DNA of 64,000 bases from the NCBI GenBank assembly GCA_964414345.1, contig CAYPWF010000010.1:7115-71114 (forward strand), given 5' to 3'. The notes below the pieces were generated by a model, which was not told the origin of the DNA, ran no database searches, and saw only the letters and a list, made by a program, of their open reading frames with translations. This DNA is from an uncultured Desulfarculaceae bacterium. Its GTDB lineage: Bacteria > Desulfobacterota > Desulfocorpusculales > Desulfocorpusculum. The position numbers and the translations under genes are program-made. Below, piece after piece: positions 5,053 to 60,184 of this stretch (its first letter is position 1; each line of letters opens with the position of its first letter).

Positions 5053-6270
5053 TTAACCCCTTTCCTTGAGGGGCTTCCACTCGCACTTGTCAGGGCCGCA
5101 GTAAGAGCCTATGTAATCCGCCTGGGGCCTGTAAAGCTGGGGTTTGCCCTGGGCCTCTCCCAGGCGCTCCTCTATGATGTGAGCCACCCAACCAGAGGTG
5201 CGCGCCACTGCAAAGATGGGTGTGAAGAGGTCCTTGGGGATGCCCATGGCGTTGTATGTGGGGGCGCTGTAGAAGTCCACATTGGTTGGAATTGAGCGGC
5301 CCTTGAGCCTCTGAAATGTCTCTTTGGCCACCCTCTCTATCTCCACCGCCAGCTCGTACCAGTGGGTTTGACCGGTTCTCTTGCCTATGGCTTCGGCCAT
5401 GGGTTTCAGTACCTTCACCCTGGGGTCGTCCACCTCGTAAACCGCGTGGCCCAGCCCCATGATGCGCTTGCCCTCCTGGAGCCTTCTGCTCACCCATTCC
5501 TGAGCCCGCTCCTTGGAGCCCACCTCTTCCAGCATCATCATCACCCTTGTGTTGGCCCCCCCGTGAAGCTCCCCTGCCAGAGAGGCCACGGCAGCAGCCA
5601 CTGCTCCGTAAGTATGTGACCTGGTGGATGCCACAGCCCTGGCCGTGAAAGTGGAGGCGTTGAAAGAGTGCTCTGCGTGAAGGATCAGGCAAACATCCAG
5701 ATCGCGCTCTGTGTGGGTGTCTGCCCTGACCCCCTTGAGCATGCGAAGGAAATCAGCCGCATGTGGCAGGGATGGGTCTGGAGGGATCACGGCCAGGCCC
5801 TTCCTGATCCTCTCCCAGGCGGCCACAATGGTGGGGAAGGCCCCTATGATCCTAAGGCCCCTGTCCACCTCTGCTGGGCGGCTCTCGTCTCGGATGTTGG
5901 GGTCGTGGTCCGCCAGGAAGGCGGCTGCCCCCTGGAGCACGTCCATGGGGGAAGCTGAGCTGGGCCTCAAGCGCATGGACTTTATGATCTCCCCGGGGAT
6001 TTGCCTAAAGTAGGCCAGTCTGGAAGAGAACTCCTTGAGCTCCTCGGCAGAAGGGAGCCTGGCTTCCAGGAGAAGAAAAACCGTCTCCTCGTAAGTGGCA
6101 TTGGCCGCAAGATCCAGCACGTCATATCCCCTGTAAATGAGGACCCCTTTCTTGGGGTCTATCCCGCAGATGAGGGTGTCGGCCACCGGGATATCCCTGA
6201 GGCCTATGTTCTTGATGTCCGTGATGCACTCCATGGGCGTTCCTCCTCCTGGGTTGCCGAAGCTATTCAT
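5053..6270 (-). CDS. gltA: Citrate synthase (Si-type; a 2-methylcitrate synthase cannot be excluded)
   Basis: MGLGHAVYEVDDPRVK (GxGHxVYxxxDPR) and HAEHSFNASTFTARAV...LAGELHGGAN citrate-synthase signatures. Confidence 0.85.
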   Translation of the reverse strand: MNSFGNPGGGTPMECITDIKNIGLRDIPVADTLICGIDPKKGVLIYRGYDVLDLAANATYEETVFLLLEARLPSAEELKEFSSRLAYFRQIPGEIIKSMRLRPSSASPMDVLQGAAAFLADHDPNIRDESRPAEVDRGLRIIGAFPTIVAAWERIRKGLAVIPPDPSLPHAADFLRMLKGVRADTHTERDLDVCLILHAEHSFNASTFTARAVASTRSHTYGAVAAAVASLAGELHGGANTRVMMMLEEVGSKERAQEWVSRRLQEGKRIMGLGHAVYEVDDPRVKVLKPMAEAIGKRTGQTHWYELAVEIERVAKETFQRLKGRSIPTNVDFYSAPTYNAMGIPKDLFTPIFAVARTSGWVAHIIEERLGEAQGKPQLYRPQADYIGSYCGPDKCEWKPLKERG

Positions 6271-10135: not shown

Positions 10136-10195
10136 GGTCCAGCTGCAAGCCGCCCTCCTGCCCCTCTTAAAAGGCGTGGAGGGTCCCTGCCATCC

Positions 10196-10322
10196 AGCCC
10201 TCATTACTCAAGCTCAGTGTATAATGCGGCCTGTCTCAAGGATATTAGGAGAAACCGGTCCAGGCTCAAAAACACCCTGACTCTCTGTGTCAGACTCGGC
10301 CCTGGCTCGGCTCGGAACATAT
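10196..10322 (+). repeat. 3'-truncated copy of the structured element, starts 61 nt after korC stop, co-oriented
   Basis: AGCCCTCATTACTCAAG ctca GTGTATAATGCGGCCT hairpin followed by GAAACCGGTCCAGGCTCAAAAACACCCTGA...GAGTCGG... homologous to the consensus 5' half. Confidence 0.65.
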
Positions 10323-10446: not shown

Positions 10447-10824
10447 ATGAAAAGTAATGAAACGAAGAAGAACTCAGGTGTTATACACAGAAGGATTTTC
10501 TCCAATGGCCTCCTAAAAGGAGCAGGCACACTTGCTCTTCTTGGGCTGGCAGTGGGACTTGTAGGCTGCGCAGCCACGGGGGGTGCAGGCGGGGCCCTGC
10601 TGGGTTACGGGATCACAGGCAATGCCAGGGGGGCTGCCCTGGGGGCCGGTGCCGGAATGCTTGCCGGTTCCCTGTTTGATGTAGGGGTCATAAGGCCCCA
10701 CCCCTACTCCTATGGACCGCCGGCCTATTACGGGCCGGCCCCTGGAAGGTGGGTTTATGTGCCCGGGTACTGGGATGCTTATGGCCGCTGGGTCCCACCC
10801 CAGCGTTACTGGGCGCCTTATTGA
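10447..10824 (+). CDS. Glycine-zipper lipoprotein with aromatic/Pro-rich C-terminal tail
   Basis: Lipobox LVGC; G/A-rich hydrophobic glycine-zipper segment; C-terminal YGPPAYYGPAPGRWVYVPGYWDAYGRWVPPQRYWAPY. Confidence 0.55.
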   Translation: MKSNETKKNSGVIHRRIFSNGLLKGAGTLALLGLAVGLVGCAATGGAGGALLGYGITGNARGAALGAGAGMLAGSLFDVGVIRPHPYSYGPPAYYGPAPGRWVYVPGYWDAYGRWVPPQRYWAPY

Positions 10825-10899: not shown

Positions 10900-11120
10900 C
10901 CTGTTGTTGCAGGGGCCCAAAAAACACCCTGTTCCCCTTGTGCACGCAGTTCTCTTGACTTGCTTCCAAGGAGATTGCTGAATCGGCAAAAAGTCTTTGA
11001 TGAGTCTAAAGTCCTCAGTCATTGGTTTTATCCCTAAGAGCAATTTTCCCTTTTCTTATGAACCAGCCCTACCAACACATGTTGCACACGCACAGCTCCG
11101 ATAACGGGTGCGTATAGCCT

Positions 11121-11298
11121 TAGCCTGCATTATTCAGGATGAGTGAATAATACGGGCTATCTTATTGATGTATTTTGATAAGCCGGTCTGTGCTCAAAAG
11201 CACCCTGATTTTGGTTTCCAGATTTGATCCTGCTCTGAGTCGGAATATGTGGAAGTGGACCGGGGGCTTGGGGGCTTGAGTCCCCAAAGTTACGGGCT
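11121..11298 (+). repeat. Copy of the structured element (3' end truncated by ~20 nt)
   Basis: TAGCCTGCATTATTCAGGATGAGTGAATAATACGGGCT ... GCTCAAAAGCACCCTGATTTTGGTTTCCAGATTTGATCCTGCTCTGAGTCGGAATATG ... CTTGGGGGCTTGAGTCCCCAAAGTTACGGGCT. Confidence 0.9.
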
Positions 11299-11458
11299 GT
11301 ACAGGAGGCATGGCCCTACTGCCCTTCTTTTGCGAAACTCGCTCCCTTTAAAGTAGCGCAACTCGGCTTGCACAAGCCTGAAAGGACCAGACCCCGAGGG
11401 GAGCATCCCACGGGGTCTTGGGTTAAAAAGGAACCGCTGAAATCAGCAGAAGGAGTTT

Positions 11459-11534
11459 TGGCTCCCCGAGTAGGACTCGAACCTACAACCTAGTGGTTAA
11501 CAGCCACCCGCTCTGCCGATTGAGCTATCGGGGA
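11459..11534 (-). tRNA. tRNA-Asn (anticodon GUU), CCA encoded
   Basis: Reverse complement folds as 5' UCCCCGA acceptor / D-arm GCUC..GAGC / anticodon stem GGUGG-CUGUUAA-CCACU (GUU) / T-arm GUAGG-UUCGAGU-CCUAC / UCGGGGA-G-CCA. U1-A72 start as in E. coli tRNA-Asn. Confidence 0.85.
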
Positions 11535-11748
11535 TCTGAGCAGTTCCTAAAGCACCAATCCTAGTCAAAATTTTATACCAGAGGGCACCTCGCTTGTAAA
11601 GCCCGGCACATCTTTCTGTTCTCAGCATGTGAAATGCCAGGTGGGCCTTAGAAGGCATCTGTCCGCTTTCTTTAAGCCATCACCCTGTGACCGCACACGC
11701 TTTTTTACAATGAGGGGGTAGGCAAGGCTTGAGGTAGCACGCCAAAGC

Positions 11749-11812
11749 GTACGAGGGGTTTGGGAGGGGCGTAACCCCCGTACTCAAAGGCTTTGGAAAA
11801 TAATCCTGGCTA
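11749..11812 (+). repeat. 3'-terminal fragment (~64 nt) of the structured element
   Basis: GTACGAGGGGTTTGGGAGGGGCGTAACCCCCGTACTCAAAGGCTTTGGAAAATAATCCTGGCTA matches the consensus 3' end including the GC hairpin. Confidence 0.8.
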
Positions 11813-11937
11813 AGCTGGCTCCGCTGGTCTGCCCGGAGGAATTGGCCAGCTGGAAATCAAAAAAACCATTCAGATTTCTTTCGGCAGGGATTGCCTTGGA
11901 GCCCAAGGGGAGTAAATTCAAAGAATGGAGGTGCAAG

Positions 11938-12300
11938 ATGATGGGGCTTGAGGAATTGAGGCAGAGAAAGGACATACTGGTTCAGATCGACTGGGAGCTC
12001 ACCCCCCTTGAGGCAGTGGAGATGTTCGATCACAGGACCGGGGGTTTGAAATCAAGGCTGCAGGTGAGAAGTTACAAGGAGAAGCATTACTTTTTTTGTG
12101 TCGACAATTGGCGGGAAGAGCCACGCTTGGTTCTCAAGGAGCGCTCCATAAAGGAATCCAGGGTAATAGCTGAGGTCTGCGCCCCAAAAGAACTCCTTCA
12201 GGAGTGCATCTTGCAATACGGCGACCGCCAGGGGCTTTTCCCCCCAAGCGAGGCCTTGAAAGAGTGGTTGAGAAAAAATCTTTTCTACCAGAACCCTTAG
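11938..12300 (+). CDS. Hypothetical protein (~120 aa), lower GC, orphan
   Basis: ATGATGG start 6 nt after GGAGG. The ORF track begins at TTG 11842, but the ATG with RBS is preferred. No recognisable domain. The stop codon TAG is the first three nt of the downstream element copy. Confidence 0.5.
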   Translation: MMGLEELRQRKDILVQIDWELTPLEAVEMFDHRTGGLKSRLQVRSYKEKHYFFCVDNWREEPRLVLKERSIKESRVIAEVCAPKELLQECILQYGDRQGLFPPSEALKEWLRKNLFYQNP

Positions 12301-12495
12301 CCCGGATTGTTCTCCAAAGCCCTTAACTTTGGGGGCTCAAGCCCCAAAGCCTCCGGTACACTTCGCGACATTCCGACTCAAAGCAGGACCAGATCTGAAA
12401 CCAAGAATCAGGGTGCTTTTGAGCATAGACCGGCTTCTCAAAACATCTCATTAAGATAGCCCGCATTATCCACTGATCCTGAATAACACGGGCCA
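12298..12495 (-). repeat. Complete copy of the structured element (sense strand = minus), starts 46 nt after the cNMP-binding gene stop, co-oriented
   Basis: Reverse complement gives GGCCCGTGTTATTCAGGATCAGTGGATAATGCGGGCT...CTCAAAAGCACCCTGATTCTTGGTTTCAGATCTGGTCCTGCTTTGAGTCGG...CTTTGGGGCTTGAGCCCCCAAAG...GGAGAACAATCCGGGCTA. Confidence 0.9.
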
Positions 12496-12539
12496 GCAGG
12501 TCCGATGGAGCTTCTTACACCCTCCTGTTGTGAAATAGA

Positions 12540-13022
12540 TCAGATCTCCAGGAGTTTTTGGATGTCCGGGTGCTTGCGCATCACTCTTATGAACTGGTTG
12601 GTCCTTCTCTCAAGGCGTCTTTTGAAGACTTGGAACACCCGCTTCATGACCAGGTATGCCCAACGGGGTTCTCTCTCCAAGATCTCCAGGAAAACCTCCC
12701 CTGATATGGCCAGCACCTGGGAGGGCTCCACAGCCACGGCATAGGTGGTATGGAGCCCGTCTGGCACCAGGGAAGACCATCCAAAGGAGTAACCTCTTTT
12801 TATTGAACCCAATGAGATGATGATATCCTGGGCGATCTCCACCTCTAAGAGGATTTTTCCTTCTTTGAGCATGTAGAAATCCTGCGCCCTGGCTCCTTCC
12901 TCAAATATTACGGCCCCCGAGCTATATTCAACGAGGCGGGCCTGCGGTGCCATCTCTGTGAGGATGGATTGCGGAACTCCCTGAAGGAGAAGAATATCTT
13001 GCAAATCGGATGCAGAAACCAT
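12540..13022 (-). CDS. Stand-alone cyclic-nucleotide-binding (cNMP/CAP effector) domain protein
   Basis: 160 aa, typical cNMP-binding beta-roll (FEEGARAQDFYMLKEGKILLEV...SFGWSSLV); no DNA-binding HTH. Confidence 0.7.
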   Translation of the reverse strand: MVSASDLQDILLLQGVPQSILTEMAPQARLVEYSSGAVIFEEGARAQDFYMLKEGKILLEVEIAQDIIISLGSIKRGYSFGWSSLVPDGLHTTYAVAVEPSQVLAISGEVFLEILEREPRWAYLVMKRVFQVFKRRLERRTNQFIRVMRKHPDIQKLLEI

Positions 13023-15232: not shown

Positions 15233-16714
15233 TCACACTCTCCAGACTTCTCTTACGGCCAAAGCCGTCAGGTCCAAAAGCACACCAGGGAAAAAGAAAA
15301 GCAGCACGCAGCCCAACGCTGTAACAAGGGGAGCCCAGGTGCAAAGGGAAGAAAGCTCCGGCAGCCTCTCAGTGGGTTCCCCCTTTGGGATGGGCAGAAA
15401 AAAAGCCTTATAAACCACAGGCATCAGATACGCCGCGTTTAGAAGAGAACTCAGCAAAAGGACCATGAGGGGCACTGTCTGCTCGGTTGCCACGCAGCCT
15501 AGGGCCAGATACCACTTGCTCAGGAACCCGGCCAAGGGAGGTACCCCCATAATGCTGAGGGAGGCTGCCAAAAAGGCTCCCATGGTCAGGGGCATACGTC
15601 TTCCGATACCGTGCATTTGGCTTATGCGCTGCTTTCCCGTTGCCACGTACAGGGCCCCGGCGCAAAAAAAGAGGCTTATTTTCCCAAGAGCATGAGTGGC
15701 CAGATGGGCCATTGCTCCCTGAAGGCCCTCTGGGCTGAGCAAAGCGCCCCCCAGGATTATGTATGAAAGCTGGCCCACCGTGGAATAGGCCAGCATCCTC
15801 TTGAGCCCGTCTTGGCAAAGGGCTGCAAGGGATGCCGCCACCATGGTTGCAGCTGCCAGAGCCAGAACCAGGGAATCCAAACCGCTGGAGCCAAGCAGTT
15901 CCAGTCCGAAAATCCCTGCTAGAACCCTAAGAATGCTGAACACTCCCACTTTTACCACCGCCACCGCATGCAAAAGCGCGCTTACAGGCGTGGGGGCCAC
16001 CATGGCAGCTGGAAGCCAGCCGTGAAAGGGCATTATTGCCGCCTTTGCGAAACCGAAGAGAAACATCAGGAGCAAGGTTGCCAGCTCCAGGCCCGAGAAC
16101 CCAGCCTGTTTCAATATGCCATCCGGAACAAAGTCCAAGGTGTTTGCCGCCCCGTAACACACCAGCATGGCCGGCAGCACAAGCCCAATGGATCCCCCAA
16201 CTATGTAAAGAAGATACCTGCGCCCCGCACTCCTGGCCTCCGGATCCTGGTGGTGAGTCACTAGGGGATAGGTGGCAAAAGATAGAAGTTCATAGAAGAG
16301 GTAGAGAGTCAGGAGATTCGCCGAGAAGGCAACCCCTAGTGTGGAGAAAAGGGCCAAGGCGAAATAGCAGTAATAACGGGTTTGGCCGTGCTCCTTGAGG
16401 CCCCTCATGTATCCTATGGAGTAAAGGGAAGTCACGATCCACAGGCTGGATGAGATCAAGGCGAAGAGAATACCCATCGCATCTACTCTAAAAGCAATGG
16501 GGACTCCCGGGAAAACTTCCGCCACCTGGAAGAAGAGATTCTCTCCCCCTAGAACGCTTGGTAGCATGCTTAGCACCAAGGCCAGCTTTGCCAGCCCGGC
16601 CGCCAGGGTCCAGCCTTCCCTCACGTCAGGGGAACGGGCTGAAAGCAGCAAGGGAACAACACCGAGGGATGCCCCCACAGCCAAGAGGGGAAGTGTGGAG
16701 TTCACGTCGGCCAT
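15233..16714 (-). CDS. Mrp antiporter subunit D-like (NuoN/MrpD family), second copy
   Basis: 493-aa NuoN/MrpD-type membrane protein. Confidence 0.75.
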   Translation of the reverse strand: MADVNSTLPLLAVGASLGVVPLLLSARSPDVREGWTLAAGLAKLALVLSMLPSVLGGENLFFQVAEVFPGVPIAFRVDAMGILFALISSSLWIVTSLYSIGYMRGLKEHGQTRYYCYFALALFSTLGVAFSANLLTLYLFYELLSFATYPLVTHHQDPEARSAGRRYLLYIVGGSIGLVLPAMLVCYGAANTLDFVPDGILKQAGFSGLELATLLLMFLFGFAKAAIMPFHGWLPAAMVAPTPVSALLHAVAVVKVGVFSILRVLAGIFGLELLGSSGLDSLVLALAAATMVAASLAALCQDGLKRMLAYSTVGQLSYIILGGALLSPEGLQGAMAHLATHALGKISLFFCAGALYVATGKQRISQMHGIGRRMPLTMGAFLAASLSIMGVPPLAGFLSKWYLALGCVATEQTVPLMVLLLSSLLNAAYLMPVVYKAFFLPIPKGEPTERLPELSSLCTWAPLVTALGCVLLFFFPGVLLDLTALAVREVWRV

Positions 16715-16729
16715 GGTTCAGCCTTACCT

Positions 16730-18220
16730 TCAAGAAAAAGTAAGAGGGATCACAGGCTCCACGATGCCCGAGACGATCTGCCCGCTGAAAACACCCAGAG
16801 CCACCAGCCCCCCCGCTACAAGCAAAACCGGCACCACCATCTGCACCGGGGCCTCCTGAAAGGTGTGGGAGAGATGGTGCTCTGCTCCTTCATTCTCCTG
16901 GGCGCTGAAAAAGGCCCATTCAAACACCCGGAAGAAAAGCACCACGCCCACCAGACTGCTAAATATGAGAGCTGCCAAGAAACCGTAATGCTCTGCCTCC
17001 AATGCACCCAGAAGGAGGTACCACTTGCTGAAAAAGCCGCAGGTAGGCGGCACTCCCACTATGGAAAGGGCCGTTGCCACAAGGGCTCCCATGGTAAAGG
17101 GCATCTTGGAGAAAGCTCCCTTCAACTCTGGAAACGAGCAGCCAGGAAGCCTATAAAGAAGATTTCCTACAGCCAAGAAAGCGCAAAGGGTCATGAATAT
17201 GTCGTTGAGCAAATGCAGGACGGCCCCTGTCATGCCGCTTTTGTTGCCCAGCCAGAATCCCCCCACCATGTACCCCACCTCTATGAGTATCACGTAGGTG
17301 AGCATTCTTTTTAGATCCTTTTGGGCCAAGGCCATGATGGAGCCCATTATGACCGCCAACACCGCAAGCCACATCACTGCCTTTTCAAGACCCAGTTTTT
17401 CAAAGGAGTAAACCGGGCCGAACACATTCAGGTCAATCCTGATCATTACATAGACCATTACCTTGGTCATAAGGGGAGCGATCAAACCGCTGATAGGGTA
17501 AGGGGCGTGGGTGTAAGCATTGGGAAGCCAGCCATGAAGGGGGAAAAAGGCCATCTTCAGCCACAGTCCCACCATTGTTATGATGAAGGCCACCAGGATG
17601 GCCCTCGAGCCATGAAGACCTGTGATCAGGTGGGCCAGGTCAGCCATGTTCAAGGTGCCGGTCATGATGTAAAGATAGCCCACTCCCAAGAGATAGAAGC
17701 AGGCTCCCAAGGTGCCCATGAAAACGTAATTCAGGCTTGAGAGGGAAGCCCTCTCAGGGCCCATGGCTATGAGAGCATAAGCGGTTATGGAGGCTATCTC
17801 CAGAAGCACATAGAGATTGAAGGCGTCTCCTGTGACGGTGATGCCGAGAAGGCCTGTCACAAAAAGCATCTGCAAGCCGTACAAGGCCCCCAACCTGTCC
17901 TGGAAATGGCGCTTCACACTGGGGCCGGACCAGATCCACTGGATTAAGGCGGACAAGGAAACCGCCGCCAAGACCATGCCGTTTAGAGTGTCCACCACGT
18001 AAACTATTCCCCATGGGGCTTCCCACCCGCCCAGTTTGTAAGTCACGGGGCCCCACCTTATGACCCTGAAAAGTAGGCCGATGCAGCTTGAGGCAGCAGT
18101 TGCCAGCCCAAAGAGCCCCACAGGGAAGCACAGATCCTTCCTGAGCCAACCCAATGCGAAGACCAGGAAGGAGGTAAGAAGGGGCACTACTACGATGAGG
18201 GCGGGCAGGTGCTCTTTCAT
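16730..18220 (-). CDS. Mrp antiporter subunit D (NuoM/N-like)
   Basis: True start MKEHLPALIVVVPLL overlaps the mrpC stop (ATGA). The upstream His/Gly-rich extension shown in the ORF track is read-through into mrpC in another frame. Confidence 0.75.
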   Translation of the reverse strand: MKEHLPALIVVVPLLTSFLVFALGWLRKDLCFPVGLFGLATAASSCIGLLFRVIRWGPVTYKLGGWEAPWGIVYVVDTLNGMVLAAVSLSALIQWIWSGPSVKRHFQDRLGALYGLQMLFVTGLLGITVTGDAFNLYVLLEIASITAYALIAMGPERASLSSLNYVFMGTLGACFYLLGVGYLYIMTGTLNMADLAHLITGLHGSRAILVAFIITMVGLWLKMAFFPLHGWLPNAYTHAPYPISGLIAPLMTKVMVYVMIRIDLNVFGPVYSFEKLGLEKAVMWLAVLAVIMGSIMALAQKDLKRMLTYVILIEVGYMVGGFWLGNKSGMTGAVLHLLNDIFMTLCAFLAVGNLLYRLPGCSFPELKGAFSKMPFTMGALVATALSIVGVPPTCGFFSKWYLLLGALEAEHYGFLAALIFSSLVGVVLFFRVFEWAFFSAQENEGAEHHLSHTFQEAPVQMVVPVLLVAGGLVALGVFSGQIVSGIVEPVIPLTFS

Positions 18221-56812: not shown

Positions 56813-58577
56813 GGACAAGATACTGGATGCGCCCATAGGCCTGGACGCAGAGGTCCTTGGGGGAAAAGACTTGGGGCCTCTTTCCCCCAGACAGCACTCC
56901 AGCAAAAAGAAAAAAGGGCGGGCTAAGGGTGCCTGGATCCTGGTGGGTTTCTTGCTGGGGGTGGGAGTGGCAGGATTTCTTTTTTGGGAGCTCACCCCCA
57001 GAACCAAAACTGTTTCCAGAGGTGCTCATTCTAGCTCGCTTTTTTCTTATCCGGTCCAGGGAATCAGGGTTCAGAGAACAGGGTCGGACAAAGGGGACGC
57101 GCAAGGCCAAGACTCCTCGGTGCTTTTGAGGGAGCAGACCCTGCGGGTGCGCTATGGGAAGGAAACCGTGAGGTTTGTCTCCGTAGAGCGAGACCCTTCG
57201 ATTTGGGCCCGCATGCTGACGGTGTTCTTGAGCCCGCCCAGATTGTATTTTGAGGGCAGTGTTGTGGAGCCAGGCCAGGACCTCATGGCTGCTACGGCTC
57301 CTGAGAGGAGCCTCACTTATGAGCTTTCATTGAAGAGCCAGCCCGGCGCGGCACCCCTTGCCCGATTTTTCCTGGAGCTGGAGATGAGCGCTGAGACCTG
57401 GGCCGCCAGGGCAAAGCAGCTCAAGGAGCCCCAGGCCCAGAGGGCATGTCTGGAGCAGGCCCTGAAGGCGGAGCCGGGCAACGTGCATGTTCTGTTGGCT
57501 TTGGGGAACCTACTTTGGGAACAAAACGAGCCCTTGGCGGCAGCCGAGAGGTTCGAGGAGCTGCTAAAGCGCTCCCCAAAGCGCAAAGAAGCTGCAGCAG
57601 CCCTTGCCTCCATCTACCAGAAATCCAAGCCCAAGAGGGCCCTGGAGATGTACAGGCTGCTTAGCGAGATAGACCCGGATCGTAGAGTTGAGCATCTCAG
57701 GCAGATGGCCGAACTCCAAGAGCGTCTCGGGATCTCCCCGGTTGAGACCTACAGGAAGATCCTGTCCCTCAAGAAAAACGATCCGGACGCCCAAAGGGGC
57801 CTTGACACACTTTATGCCAAGCAGGTGGAGAAGGCCCAGCAGGCTGAAAAAAAGGGGGAACTCTCCCAGGCCGTCCAGCAGATGAAGCAGGCTTTGGAGC
57901 TTCATCCCACCAAGAAAGGGAAGGCCTATCTGGCTACTCTTCACAACAACCTGGCATACTCCTTAGCCAAGCAGGGCAAGTACAAGGAGGCCATACCTCA
58001 CTATGAGGCATCTCTGAAGCTGGAAGAAAGCGCCGTCACACACTTGAACTTGGCTGATGCCTACGCCAAGACCAAACAAATCGACAACGCTCTCAAGAGC
58101 TTGGAGAAGGCCTGGGGCATGAAACCCAAAGAGCAAGAGGTGGTCAAGAATCTCCTTTTTCTTTGGGCCGAACTACTCACCCAGAAAAAGGATCTTCACG
58201 GAGCCATAGCCAAGCTCAAGGAACTGCACGCCAGGTTTCCAAAGGATCCGGAGGCGGCCAAGATGCTGGCGGCAGCCTACTGGAATCAGAAGGATTTGGC
58301 CAAGGCCCTGGAAGTGCTCAAAAAGGTGCCTCAGCTTATGAGTTCGCACCCACCCAAGGCAAGGGCCGAGATCCACGGTATGTTGGGGGACCTGTACAGG
58401 GCCTTGGGAGATCAGGAAAAAAACGTTAAAGGCCGCATATCCCGTTATGACGAGGCGCTAAAAGAGTACAAGGCGGCTTTGGTCTTGAACAAAGGCGACA
58501 CTCAGATTCAAAAAAAGAAGGAAGAGCTGGAAAAGGAACGAATGGCCCTGGTGAAACGCTCCCTTAGAGCCTCCTAA
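56781..58577 (+). CDS. Tetratricopeptide-repeat protein with N-terminal TM anchor
   Basis: N-terminal TM helix then multiple TPR units; stop codon TAA coincides with the first nt of an element fragment. Confidence 0.7.
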   Translation: MRRTKVPPLDEDKILDAPIGLDAEVLGGKDLGPLSPRQHSSKKKKGRAKGAWILVGFLLGVGVAGFLFWELTPRTKTVSRGAHSSSLFSYPVQGIRVQRTGSDKGDAQGQDSSVLLREQTLRVRYGKETVRFVSVERDPSIWARMLTVFLSPPRLYFEGSVVEPGQDLMAATAPERSLTYELSLKSQPGAAPLARFFLELEMSAETWAARAKQLKEPQAQRACLEQALKAEPGNVHVLLALGNLLWEQNEPLAAAERFEELLKRSPKRKEAAAALASIYQKSKPKRALEMYRLLSEIDPDRRVEHLRQMAELQERLGISPVETYRKILSLKKNDPDAQRGLDTLYAKQVEKAQQAEKKGELSQAVQQMKQALELHPTKKGKAYLATLHNNLAYSLAKQGKYKEAIPHYEASLKLEESAVTHLNLADAYAKTKQIDNALKSLEKAWGMKPKEQEVVKNLLFLWAELLTQKKDLHGAIAKLKELHARFPKDPEAAKMLAAAYWNQKDLAKALEVLKKVPQLMSSHPPKARAEIHGMLGDLYRALGDQEKNVKGRISRYDEALKEYKAALVLNKGDTQIQKKKEELEKERMALVKRSLRAS

Positions 58578-58612
58578 GCCGCATTGTCCACTGATCTTGA
58601 ATAATGCGGGCT
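58575..58612 (+). repeat. 5'-hairpin-only fragment of the structured element wedged between TPR gene stop and tRNA-Pro 3' end
   Basis: TAAGCCGCATTGTCCACtgatcttGAATAATGCGGGCT; 2 nt separate it from the tRNA-Pro 3' terminus. Confidence 0.75.
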
Positions 58613-58614
58613 GA

Positions 58615-58689
58615 TCGGGGAGAGGCGATTTGAACGCCCGACCTCTTGCTCCCGAAGCAAGCGCTCTGACCAGTCTGAGCTACTCCCCG
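58615..58689 (-). tRNA. tRNA-Pro (anticodon CGG)
   Basis: Reverse complement CGGGGAG-UA-GCUC...GAGC-G-CUUGC-UUCGGGA-GCAAG-AGGUC-GGGCG-UUCAAAU-CGCCU-CUCCCCG-A cloverleaf; CCA not encoded. Confidence 0.85.
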
Positions 58690-58776
58690 AAAAGTCTGCC
58701 TGAAGACTTCTGATTCGGACTAGGCGCCAATATATGTGGCACTGGGGGCTCTATTCCCACAACCCCCTAGAAAAAG

Positions 58777-59974: not shown

Positions 59975-60115
59975 CTGCTCAAAATCAATACTCAAAAGCA
60001 CCCCGCCTTTGGGTTTCGGATTCAATCCTGCTTTGGGTCGGAACATGTGCAAGTGTACCGGGGGCTTGGGGGATTGGCCCCCAAAGTTGCGGGCTCCAGA
60101 GAATAATCCGGGTTA
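59975..60115 (+). repeat. 5'-truncated copy of the structured element immediately after plsY (co-oriented)
   Basis: ATACTCAAAAGCACCCCGCCTTTGGGTTTCGGATTCAATCCTGCTTTGGGTCGGAACATGTGCAAGTGTACCGGGGGCTTGGGGGATTGGCCCCCAAAGTTGCGGGCTCCAGAGAATAATCCGGGTTA. Confidence 0.85.
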
Positions 60116-60184
60116 GAGATATGGAGACCCAGACATTGGCTGGAATGGGTAAAGGAGAATCTGGGGGTTTTTGAGGTATGGGGG

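Follow-up and report, generated by a model that had tools for sequence, protein, structure and literature searches.

The region around the tRNA-Asn gene of the 64-kb window (the whole stretch of DNA that was analyzed) is very probably a gap in the core chromosome in which one abundant MITE family has inserted repeatedly around a resident tRNA-Asn gene and a resident gene of the DVU0772 family; our verdict is that the locus is an ordinary insertion hotspot. In the scenario that we favor, the intergenic DNA of the host, an uncultured Thermodesulfobacteriota bacterium, would have been struck repeatedly by the MITE: at least four insertions, independent of one another, would have accumulated from 10.2 to 12.5 kb and then decayed, leaving one copy without its 3′ end, one without its interior, and one as a 5′ part only. 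The DVU0772-family and tRNA-Asn genes would be normal residents that happen to lie between the insertions. One reading offered in the original prediction, that of a hotspot of repeated element insertion, is upheld by the four separate copies or remnants found within 2.3 kb and by the variation in the content of this slot among relatives.

An abundant MITE family

The repeat is a noncoding MITE of about 200 nt, in which only chance ORFs of 40 to 50 aa occur, and the family appears to be undescribed. It is bounded by 12-nt terminal inverted repeats (CCCGSATTATTC), with ends reading CCCGCATTATTC on one side and GAATAATCCGGG on the other; across 115 copies, these repeats pair in 84% of cells, with one fixed C-C mismatch. 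At the 5′ end, an additional, inward copy of the terminal repeat gives rise to a hairpin of 17 bp; a second hairpin, GGGGGC/GCCCCC, lies near the 3′ end. The copies share a mean pairwise identity of 72%, and subfamilies are visible within the family.

Using nhmmer with a profile of 207 model positions built from the window's own copies, we located six full, one near-full, and five partial copies in the 64 kb, amounting to about 2.8% of the window. Another 130 full-length matches came from 0.74 Mb of related loci in metagenomes. The copies occupy both strands, and 104 of 117 lie outside long ORFs. Two sit within other copies as nested insertions (L048 and L088), and the related contigs L109 and L080 provide a pair of filled and empty sites.

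A scan of species-representative genomes with a conserved 21-mer of the MITE returned only six single matches, five of which gave no element match when scanned with the element profile; the true match, a 3′ fragment of the MITE, opens a contig labeled uncultured Desulfarculaceae (L012). With one true match of six, the species-representative collection therefore covers the source lineage poorly. One sister contig stops about 290 nt past the tRNA gene, and a species-representative contig starts within a MITE copy.

Target duplication and the predicted source of the transposase

Analysis of the flanks revealed that the MITE generates a 4-bp target duplication of the form YTAR. The four bases flanking the element on the left match those on the right in 74 to 82% of copies, and this agreement falls to 13 to 29% one base further out or in. 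Perfect 4-nt direct repeats are present at 51 of 109 unique sites (CTAG at 20, TTAG at 14, CTAA at 9, and TTAA at 3). The variable outer bases of the flanks covary as direct repeats (Fisher P values of 7e-14 and 9e-6) and show no covariation as inverted repeats (P values of 0.42 and 0.54).

These statistics bear on the possibility that the element is of the IS630/Tc1-mariner type, with duplication of TA only, as in Correia elements. TA is indeed the conserved center of the tetranucleotide at the flanks, it is found on both flanks in 69 of 115 copies, and a 2-bp TA duplication accounts equally well for the two nested insertions, from which we had first read such a duplication. However, direct-repeat agreement extends to the bases adjoining the TA (82% and 74% identity), and the 2-bp model predicts no such match, since it places one of the two compared bases inside the element and its counterpart in the flank. 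The flank statistics thus overturned the TA-only duplication, and we regard an IS630/Tc1-mariner assignment as very unlikely.

IS5 produces YTAR target duplications (PMC5009759), and the MITE is therefore most likely mobilized by an IS5-family DDE transposase supplied in trans, an assignment made by analogy with the target duplication of IS5. With IS5 and IS5-derived MITEs, the family shares the 4-bp YTAR duplication, short terminal inverted repeats, and a preference for noncoding insertion. It differs in that its terminal repeat has no obvious match to that of Escherichia coli IS5 (GGAAGGTGCGAA), in its third, inward repeat copy forming the 5′ hairpin, and in that neither a transposase gene nor an autonomous partner turned up in 865 kb. 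Pairs of terminal repeats 0.7 to 3 kb apart disclosed no autonomous element in those 865 kb, and tblastn with E. coli InsH against the same DNA recovered no IS5-type transposase, in both cases in a small sample picked for its MITE content. The sole candidate for an autonomous partner, in L078, encodes unrelated proteins and was rejected.

Organization of the locus

The five features listed in the original prediction (a near-complete element copy, the tRNA-Asn gene, a 3′ fragment, an ORF of about 120 aa, and an inverted complete copy) are all present and lie almost exactly where it had placed them. The three element copies that it counted were all recovered; it had overlooked a fourth piece, a 5′ fragment of the MITE at 10195 to 10322 on the plus strand (model positions 6 to 135, nhmmer E value of 2.8e-23), which lies between a gene for a 2-oxoacid oxidoreductase gamma subunit and a gene for a small protein of 125 aa. 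The latter (10447 to 10824, plus strand, from the ORF list) is present in the relatives L006 and L007, and its product has a weak Gly-zipper match that is below the Pfam threshold. It is the conserved left neighbor of the variable slot.

The near-complete copy occupies 11119 to 11305 on the plus strand (model positions 4 to 190 of 207, E value of 8e-58). Its target duplication, TTAG, lies at 11120 to 11123 and is followed from 11124 by the element proper, which is cut off after model position 190 or so and lacks the 3′ terminal repeat. A short TAGCCT duplication had been described in front of this copy. The string in question, TATAGCCTTAGCCTGCATT, is indeed found at 11113 to 11131, but its second TAGCCT consists of the target duplication and the first bases of the element, and a significance of the first TAGCCT beyond chance is not demonstrable. 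A 12-nt extra stretch within the left copy in L001 proved to be an assembly gap with NN and no real variant.

The tRNA-Asn gene (anticodon GTT, CCA encoded; 11459 to 11534, minus strand) was identified with ARAGORN and matches Rfam RF00005 with 69.9 bits. Directly downstream of it, at 11434 to 11449 on the minus strand, a consensus scan marked a terminator-like hairpin followed by a T-run, which is a pattern match only. On its other side, what had been taken for a 3′ fragment is element sequence but is really the tail of a whole, old, degenerate copy at about 11697 to 11813 on the plus strand, from whose interior about 90 nt have been deleted. Its recognizable 3′ part spans 11744 to 11809 (nhmmer match from 11744 to 11815, model positions 137 to 206, E value of 2e-9), and its target duplication, CTAA, lies at 11810 to 11813. 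The deletion emerges from comparison with the sister genome L050, which is about 90% identical and retains a longer version at its positions 444 to 640. We also considered whether the tRNA gene might lie inside one split MITE copy and rejected this: the two pieces overlap in model coordinates (4 to 190 and 137 to 206), and in L050 the right-hand piece stands as a full copy of its own.

The ORF of 120 aa, which belongs to the DVU0772 family (see below), runs from 11938 to 12300 on the plus strand. The claim that it has its own ribosome-binding site holds, as a Shine-Dalgarno-like GGAGG, read from the sequence, lies at 11927 to 11931 on the plus strand, 6 nt before the ATG. A full-length MITE copy on the minus strand follows immediately, with the element proper at 12301 to 12492 (nhmmer match from 12296 to 12496, E value of 9e-65). 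One copy of its YTAR duplication, TTAG (12297 to 12300, plus strand), includes the TAG stop codon of the gene (12298 to 12300), and the tetranucleotide on its far side, CCAG (12493 to 12496), is the decayed duplicate, decay of this degree being expected of an insertion older than the split from the L007 lineage. The next gene (12540 to 13022, minus strand) codes for a protein with a cNMP-binding domain (Pfam PF00027, E value of 2e-14) and was assigned also by synteny. It is convergent with the DVU0772-family gene and is the conserved right neighbor of the slot.

The arrangement at the stop codon recurs in the family: at least 11 other MITE copies adjoin a reading frame of at least 300 codons whose last codon coincides with the TAR of the YTAR at the flank. 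Since TAA and TAG form part of YTAR, stop codons offer the MITE a natural target, one at which insertion does no harm. We propose that one copy landed on the stop-containing TTAG at the end of the DVU0772-family gene, in which case the target duplication would have preserved the stop codon.

The DVU0772-family gene and its neighborhood

The ORF had been called an orphan with no recognizable domain. A Pfam search with its product yields nothing; however, the product matches NCBIfam NF045682 with 86.4 bits (E value of 1.2e-24, against a cutoff of 45 bits) over model positions 1 to 100 of 100, so that the gene falls in a named family. We recovered 17 homologues at 59 to 86% identity, and invariant TPxEAVEMFDHR and FFCVDNW motifs are common to the ORF product and 16 homologues. 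Relative to the DVU0772 family, the product is without any distinguishing feature. Comparison with the syntenic orthologues in L006 and L007 gave dN/dS values of 0.06 to 0.18, by which measure the ORF is under purifying selection. Together with the conserved synteny, these observations dispose of its orphan status. The structure prediction that had been proposed as a check gave a fold with no match in the PDB; no solved structure is found among the sequence relatives of the product, and a literature search for DVU0772 returned no papers.

The visibly lower GC content ascribed to the ORF is real for total GC (51.2%, compared to 56.4% for the window, placing it in the 7th percentile of 363-nt windows) but does not extend to the third codon positions, where its GC content of 67.8% is normal, with eight other genes of the window ranging from 57 to 74%. 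The neighboring cNMP-binding gene has a GC content of 51.8%, and the GC content of homologues of the ORF in other genomes tracks that of the respective genome.

Comparison of the locus across relatives places the gene at the same position in both L006 and L007 (GCA_900174595.1 and GCA_037443445.1), with identical neighbors: the oxidoreductase gamma and 125-aa genes on one side and the cNMP-binding and Mrp antiporter genes on the other. The site beside the ORF carries the MITE in the window, in L050, where the copy is orthologous, and in L007, where it is degenerate. It is empty in L006, where the ORF and the cNMP-binding gene are separated by only 13 nt and the 8.4 kb of sequence examined contains no detectable copy of the element. 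On the other side of the ORF, as far as the 125-aa gene, the content differs in each of the relatives that we examined. From the occupation of the same syntenic slot in relatives, together with purifying selection, we take the ORF for a long-standing resident rather than captured cargo; the earlier suggestion of a mobilized or captured gene is thus refuted by the yardstick that the original prediction itself had set, synteny with normal GC, here at third codon positions.

A specific version of that suggestion is that the inverted copies at 11119 and 12296 mobilized the ORF, perhaps with the tRNA gene, as composite-transposon-like cargo. These copies are mutually inverted, bracket the ORF, and resemble each other more than any other two copies of the window do (84% over 176 nt). 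Beyond the window, however, each is nearer to an unlinked copy in L102 (90.4% and 89.5%) than to its partner (86.5%). The left copy is without a 3′ terminal repeat, the outer tetranucleotides of the would-be unit are unlike (TTAG and CCAG), and the gene occupies its slot in L007 and, with no detectable element copy, in L006. L050 has the tRNA gene, the ORF, and the right-hand copy, but past the tRNA gene its sequence bears no relation to that of the window. Composite capture of the ORF is therefore extremely improbable and in practice refuted.

The tRNA-Asn gene

The original prediction had described a micro-island at tRNA-Asn, tRNA loci being classic integration hot spots, and one could regard the locus as the remnant of an integrase-mediated island with the ORF as its surviving cargo. 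The tRNA gene does adjoin a stretch that varies between relatives, and the total GC content is slightly below the window average. Much of this deficit, however, comes from the MITE copies, which have GC contents of 44 to 52%, and the third-position GC of the ORF is, as noted, normal. A search of the whole window with the 28-mer from the 3′ end of tRNA-Asn, allowing up to 3 mismatches, found no second match. The interval bounded by the 125-aa and cNMP-binding genes has no ORF above 176 aa, which leaves no space for an integrase. The tRNA gene is also found in the sister genome L050, but L006 and L007, both of which have the ORF, lack a tRNA at this locus. With no repeat of the tRNA 3′ end, no ORF of integrase size, and no tRNA in these ORF-sharing relatives, the notion of the tRNA as an integration site is without support, and we consider an island remnant highly improbable. 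Repeated insertion of the MITE around resident genes remains our preferred account of the locus.

Orientation relative to genes and RNA folding

A further alternative, which is compatible with a MITE origin, is that the repeat serves chiefly as a functional RNA or as a transcript module, comparable to REP or ERIC sequences (a stabilizer of mRNA 3′ ends or a terminator), with its copies under selection. The Correia elements of Neisseria and the ERIC elements of enterobacteria are noncoding sequences of 100 to 200 nt with inverted-repeat ends, which are multicopy, intergenic, and often cotranscribed with genes, and orientation-dependent effects on neighboring transcripts have been reported for both. 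To our knowledge, the MITE has no sequence similarity to either, and Correia elements duplicate TA only, unlike the YTAR of the MITE. REP sequences and REPINs are abundant, hairpin-forming intergenic repeats, often at gene 3′ ends, that are mobilized by RAYT transposases; REPINs are shorter, being pairs of palindromes of about 20 to 25 nt, and are not known to make a target duplication. The MITE is likewise abundant, hairpin forming, intergenic, and often found at gene 3′ ends, but it differs in having terminal inverted repeats and a 4-bp duplication.

In gaps between codirectional genes, 24 of 30 deduplicated copies are oriented with the genes (P = 0.0014), with ratios of 18:5 and 16:5 under stricter ORF cutoffs, and gaps between convergent genes are enriched for copies (32 of 80, compared to a background of 88 of 454), although all of these counts use crude ORF calls as gene calls. 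In the window, the copies or fragments at 1241 (plus), 10195 (plus), 22878 (minus), and 46705 (minus) have the same direction as the adjacent long ORFs. Such a bias would fit the orientation effects reported for ERIC and Correia elements. An orientation bias between codirectional genes is not predicted by simple neutral decay.

The consensus folds far below shuffled sequences (z = −6.2), and the 5′ hairpin has 33 double changes, compared to 15.6 in shuffled controls, with none of 500 shuffles reaching 33. On the other hand, this signal comes mostly from one position (G-C to A-U), and the 3′ terminal repeat changes likewise, a parallel that fits a subfamily marker. In the body of the fold, covariation is in no excess (0.147, compared to 0.151 in shuffles), RNAalifold found almost no consensus structure (−4.8 kcal/mol), and about 10 to 16% of pair cells are broken, which matches neutral decay. 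Searches of Rfam retrieved no family match to the element even at E values of up to 1, with only tRNAs matching. The RNA-structure reading of the element is thus unsupported, and we consider it unlikely, on these data together, that the repeat is mainly a selected transcript module.

Implications

For annotation, the appropriate name for the ORF is DVU0772-family protein, which clears a false lead, and the surrounding repeats should be masked as MITE and not taken for an island or a composite transposon. The findings leave existing knowledge of mobile elements unchanged, and the MITE family is of modest interest in its own right. MITE insertions may be a cause of assembly breaks in metagenome-assembled genomes of this lineage. 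The family offers a clear natural example of a YTAR-targeting element coming to rest on stop codons. The bias in orientation gives a slight, testable indication that the element influences transcripts. It is conceivable, though unlikely, that the MITE is more than genomic litter: with a YTAR target that includes TAA and TAG, it would dock precisely on the ends of genes and leave them undamaged, and its strong orientation bias between codirectional genes would then reflect co-option, or filtering through selection, as a module at transcript 3′ ends that stabilizes, processes, or terminates mRNA across hundreds of genes in this uncultured lineage.

Features of the tRNA-Asn locus

Genes for aconitase, citrate synthase, ATP synthase beta, and AlaRS mark the window as core chromosome; for the ATP synthase beta subunit, the nearest relatives with a name are MAGs carrying the label Thermodesulfobacteriota. 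A repeat search of the whole window established the element, a MITE, as a multimember family of ~200 nt, and a profile built from seven of the window's copies detected six full, one near-full, and five partial copies in the 64 kb. The locus coordinates of the original prediction were upheld by ARAGORN, Rfam, and the repeat and profile searches. The tRNA-Asn(GTT) gene, on which ARAGORN and Rfam agree, lies at 11459-11534 on the minus strand and owns the terminator-like hairpin found here. The profile search placed the left copy, which is missing its last ~16 nt, at 11119-11305 (+), a 3' part at 11744-11815 (+), and a full-length right copy at 12296-12496 (-). All three copies claimed earlier were thus recovered, together with a fourth piece that had been overlooked, a 5' part at 10195-10322 (+). 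The 3' part, which separates the tRNA from the ORF, is the leftover of a distinct full copy, of which ~90 nt more survive in the sister genome. In the same-strain contig L001 (3460-3475), the GGGGGCTTG motif of the left copy contains a 12-nt extra stretch with NN, which we rejected as a real variant and attribute to an assembly gap.

The bracketed ORF is a resident gene

The ORF (11938-12300, plus strand) is preceded by GGAGG six bases upstream of its ATG. It had been described as an orphan without a recognizable domain. Although Pfam returned no match, the protein matches NCBIfam NF045682, "DVU0772 family protein," across the whole model (86.4 bits; cutoff, 45). A search of a large protein collection recovered, besides the window's own protein, 16 full-length homologues (117 to 138 aa; 59 to 86% identity) sharing the long invariant motifs TPxEAVEMFDHR and FFCVDNW. 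Its AlphaFold model is confident (pLDDT 83.6), and no solved structure resembling it was found. The dN/dS ratio is 0.18 and 0.06 against two syntenic orthologues and 0.49 against the close sister, the last figure resting on few changes. The lower GC noted earlier holds for total composition (51.2%, versus 56.4% for the window) but not for third positions, where 67.8% is normal for the window; the cNMP-binding gene next door is equally low (51.8%), and in other genomes the orthologue tracks local GC (66.4 versus 65.9; 60.5 versus 60.5).

The two syntenic orthologues, in GCA_900174595.1 (locus L006; 80% protein identity) and GCA_037443445.1 (L007; 77%), share the surroundings seen in the window, with the 2-oxoacid:ferredoxin oxidoreductase gamma subunit and the 125-aa gene on the left and, on the right, the convergent cNMP-binding gene followed by genes of the Mrp antiporter. 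Homologues at a greater distance (70% and 66%) occur in different gene neighborhoods. In L006, just 13 nt separate the ORF from the cNMP-binding gene and no element copy was detected within the 8.4 kb examined; L007 has a heavily decayed copy at the identical junction, likewise providing TAG, and the sister genome (L050/L126; ~90% identical) carries the same full right-hand copy. This distribution indicates that the right-hand insertion is old, preceding these lineage splits, and has not moved since. An 89-nt direct repeat (71% identity; 15507-15595 and 17016-17104) lies within a pair of neighboring long ORFs whose counterparts in L001 are antiporter (PF00361) genes; it is unrelated to the MITE and appears to reflect paralogy of coding sequence.

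It had further been proposed that the ORF looks like mobilized or captured cargo, with a comparison of the flanking copies to each other and to other copies suggested as a check. The flanking copies are 86.5% identical, yet an unlinked copy on another contig (L102) is closer to each of them (90.4% and 89.5%). With the copies unpaired, the left one lacking its 3' terminal repeat, and the gene syntenic in both relatives, the cargo reading fails.

Slot variability and the tRNA genes

The proposal of a hot spot fared better, since the contents of the slot that separates the 125-aa gene from the ORF differ among the window, L006, and L007. Where the window has tRNA-Asn, L006 (4345-5770) carries a SnoaL-like gene together with a nucleotidyltransferase (Polbeta) gene whose short partner is HepT-like, the latter two looking like a toxin-antitoxin pair; L007 has two small unknown ORFs. 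The tRNA is common to the window and the sister genome, and L006 and L007 lack a tRNA at this locus. Its suggested role as an integration site is not borne out: no repeat of its 3' end was found anywhere in the window, no ORF exceeds 176 aa from the 125-aa gene to the cNMP-binding gene, so that an integrase does not fit, and nothing links slot variability to the tRNA.

Elsewhere, a solitary 5' hairpin of the element, CAGCCCGCATTATTCAAGATCAGTGGACAATGCGGCT (58574-58612, minus strand), lies directly against the 3' end of tRNA-Pro (58613-58690), occupying the gap up to a convergent ORF ending at 58577. A diverged hairpin is present at the equivalent tRNA-Pro-adjacent spot in the related contig L029 (~6035-6063), and further solitary ones are located at L035:5646 and L095:2045.

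Ends and target duplication of the element

Scanning metagenomes with a conserved 21-mer of the element yielded 108 stretches, mostly long contigs from a few samples; across these 0.74 Mb the profile search gave 130 full-length and 84 partial hits. Mean pairwise identity among 118 distinct full copies is 72%, with visible subfamilies. Conservation starts and stops abruptly, delimiting the element proper from CCCGCATTATTC to GAATAATCCGGG, ends that form inverted repeats with one fixed mismatch. The left and right outer tetranucleotides are identical in 74 to 82% of copies per position, versus only 13 to 29% one base further out or in, and perfect 4-nt repeats flank 51 of 109 unique sites (CTAG 20, TTAG 14, CTAA 9, TTAA 3). 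The variable bases 1 and 4 covary in the manner of direct repeats (Fisher p 7e-14 and 9e-6), with no such covariation for the inverted arrangement (p 0.42 and 0.54). The element therefore duplicates a 4-bp target at YTAR, as reported for IS5 (PMC5009759); an initial reading as a 2-bp TA duplication was overturned by these flank statistics. The family appears to be new, with IS5-like target behavior. Within the 5' hairpin (e.g., window 12455-12492), the inner arm GTGGATAATGCGGG loosely resembles the inward-reading terminal repeat of Escherichia coli IS5, GGTGCGAATAAGCGGG, which may be chance.

As to a structured RNA, Rfam gave no match to the element even at E up to 1, and RNAalifold recovered almost no consensus structure. 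The 17-bp 5' hairpin has a small excess of double changes; because a single position, at which the 3' terminal repeat changes in the same way, accounts for most of this excess, the signal looks like a subfamily marker. The remainder of the best fold has no covariation beyond shuffled controls, and the copies have the appearance of transposon relics in decay.

Relationship to genes

The stop codon of the ORF (12298-12300) falls within the duplication TTAG (12297-12300). In at least 11 other copies (L105:2030, L032:2672, L059:14235, L054:1470, L024:3003, L103:12119, L120:429, L062:5831, L043:5858, L025:3737, and L042:9084), a frame of at least 300 codons terminates exactly on the TAR (TAA or TAG) of the flanking YTAR. 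Gene stop codons are a habitual location of the element, since YTAR includes TAA and TAG and insertion there spares the gene. Using crude ORF calls for full-length copies of L018 to L125 and the window, we found 24 of 30 deduplicated copies between codirectional genes oriented with them (p 0.0014; 18:5 and 16:5 under stricter calls) and convergent pairs enriched for copies (32/80 versus 88/454). The window copies and fragments at 1241, 10195, 22878, and 46705 are each oriented with adjacent long ORFs; as the genes change direction several times within the window, the bias tracks local transcription rather than replication direction. It is the sole hint of a function for the element.

Movement and distribution

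Past movement is evident from two cases of one copy inserted into another (L048, 6684-7060; L088, 4310-4690), head-to-tail pairs with one common tetranucleotide (L029, 7432-7762; L035, 3234-3623), and a filled/empty site pair between related contigs (L109 versus L080). L066:4817-5225 is also listed among the nested or head-to-tail copies, and the partial copy at window 59984-60116 corresponds in L029 to a partial and a full copy. The 865 kb of DNA searched yielded no autonomous partner.

Overall, the observation behind the original prediction was confirmed and its interpretation partly supported: the locus is an ordinary MITE pile-up around resident genes. The sole true match among species-representative genomes is situated right at the beginning of a contig labelled uncultured Desulfarculaceae (CAZOXN010000064.1; L012:2-59), and sister contig L126 ends ~290 nt past tRNA-Asn. 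The repeat may break short-read assemblies of this lineage.
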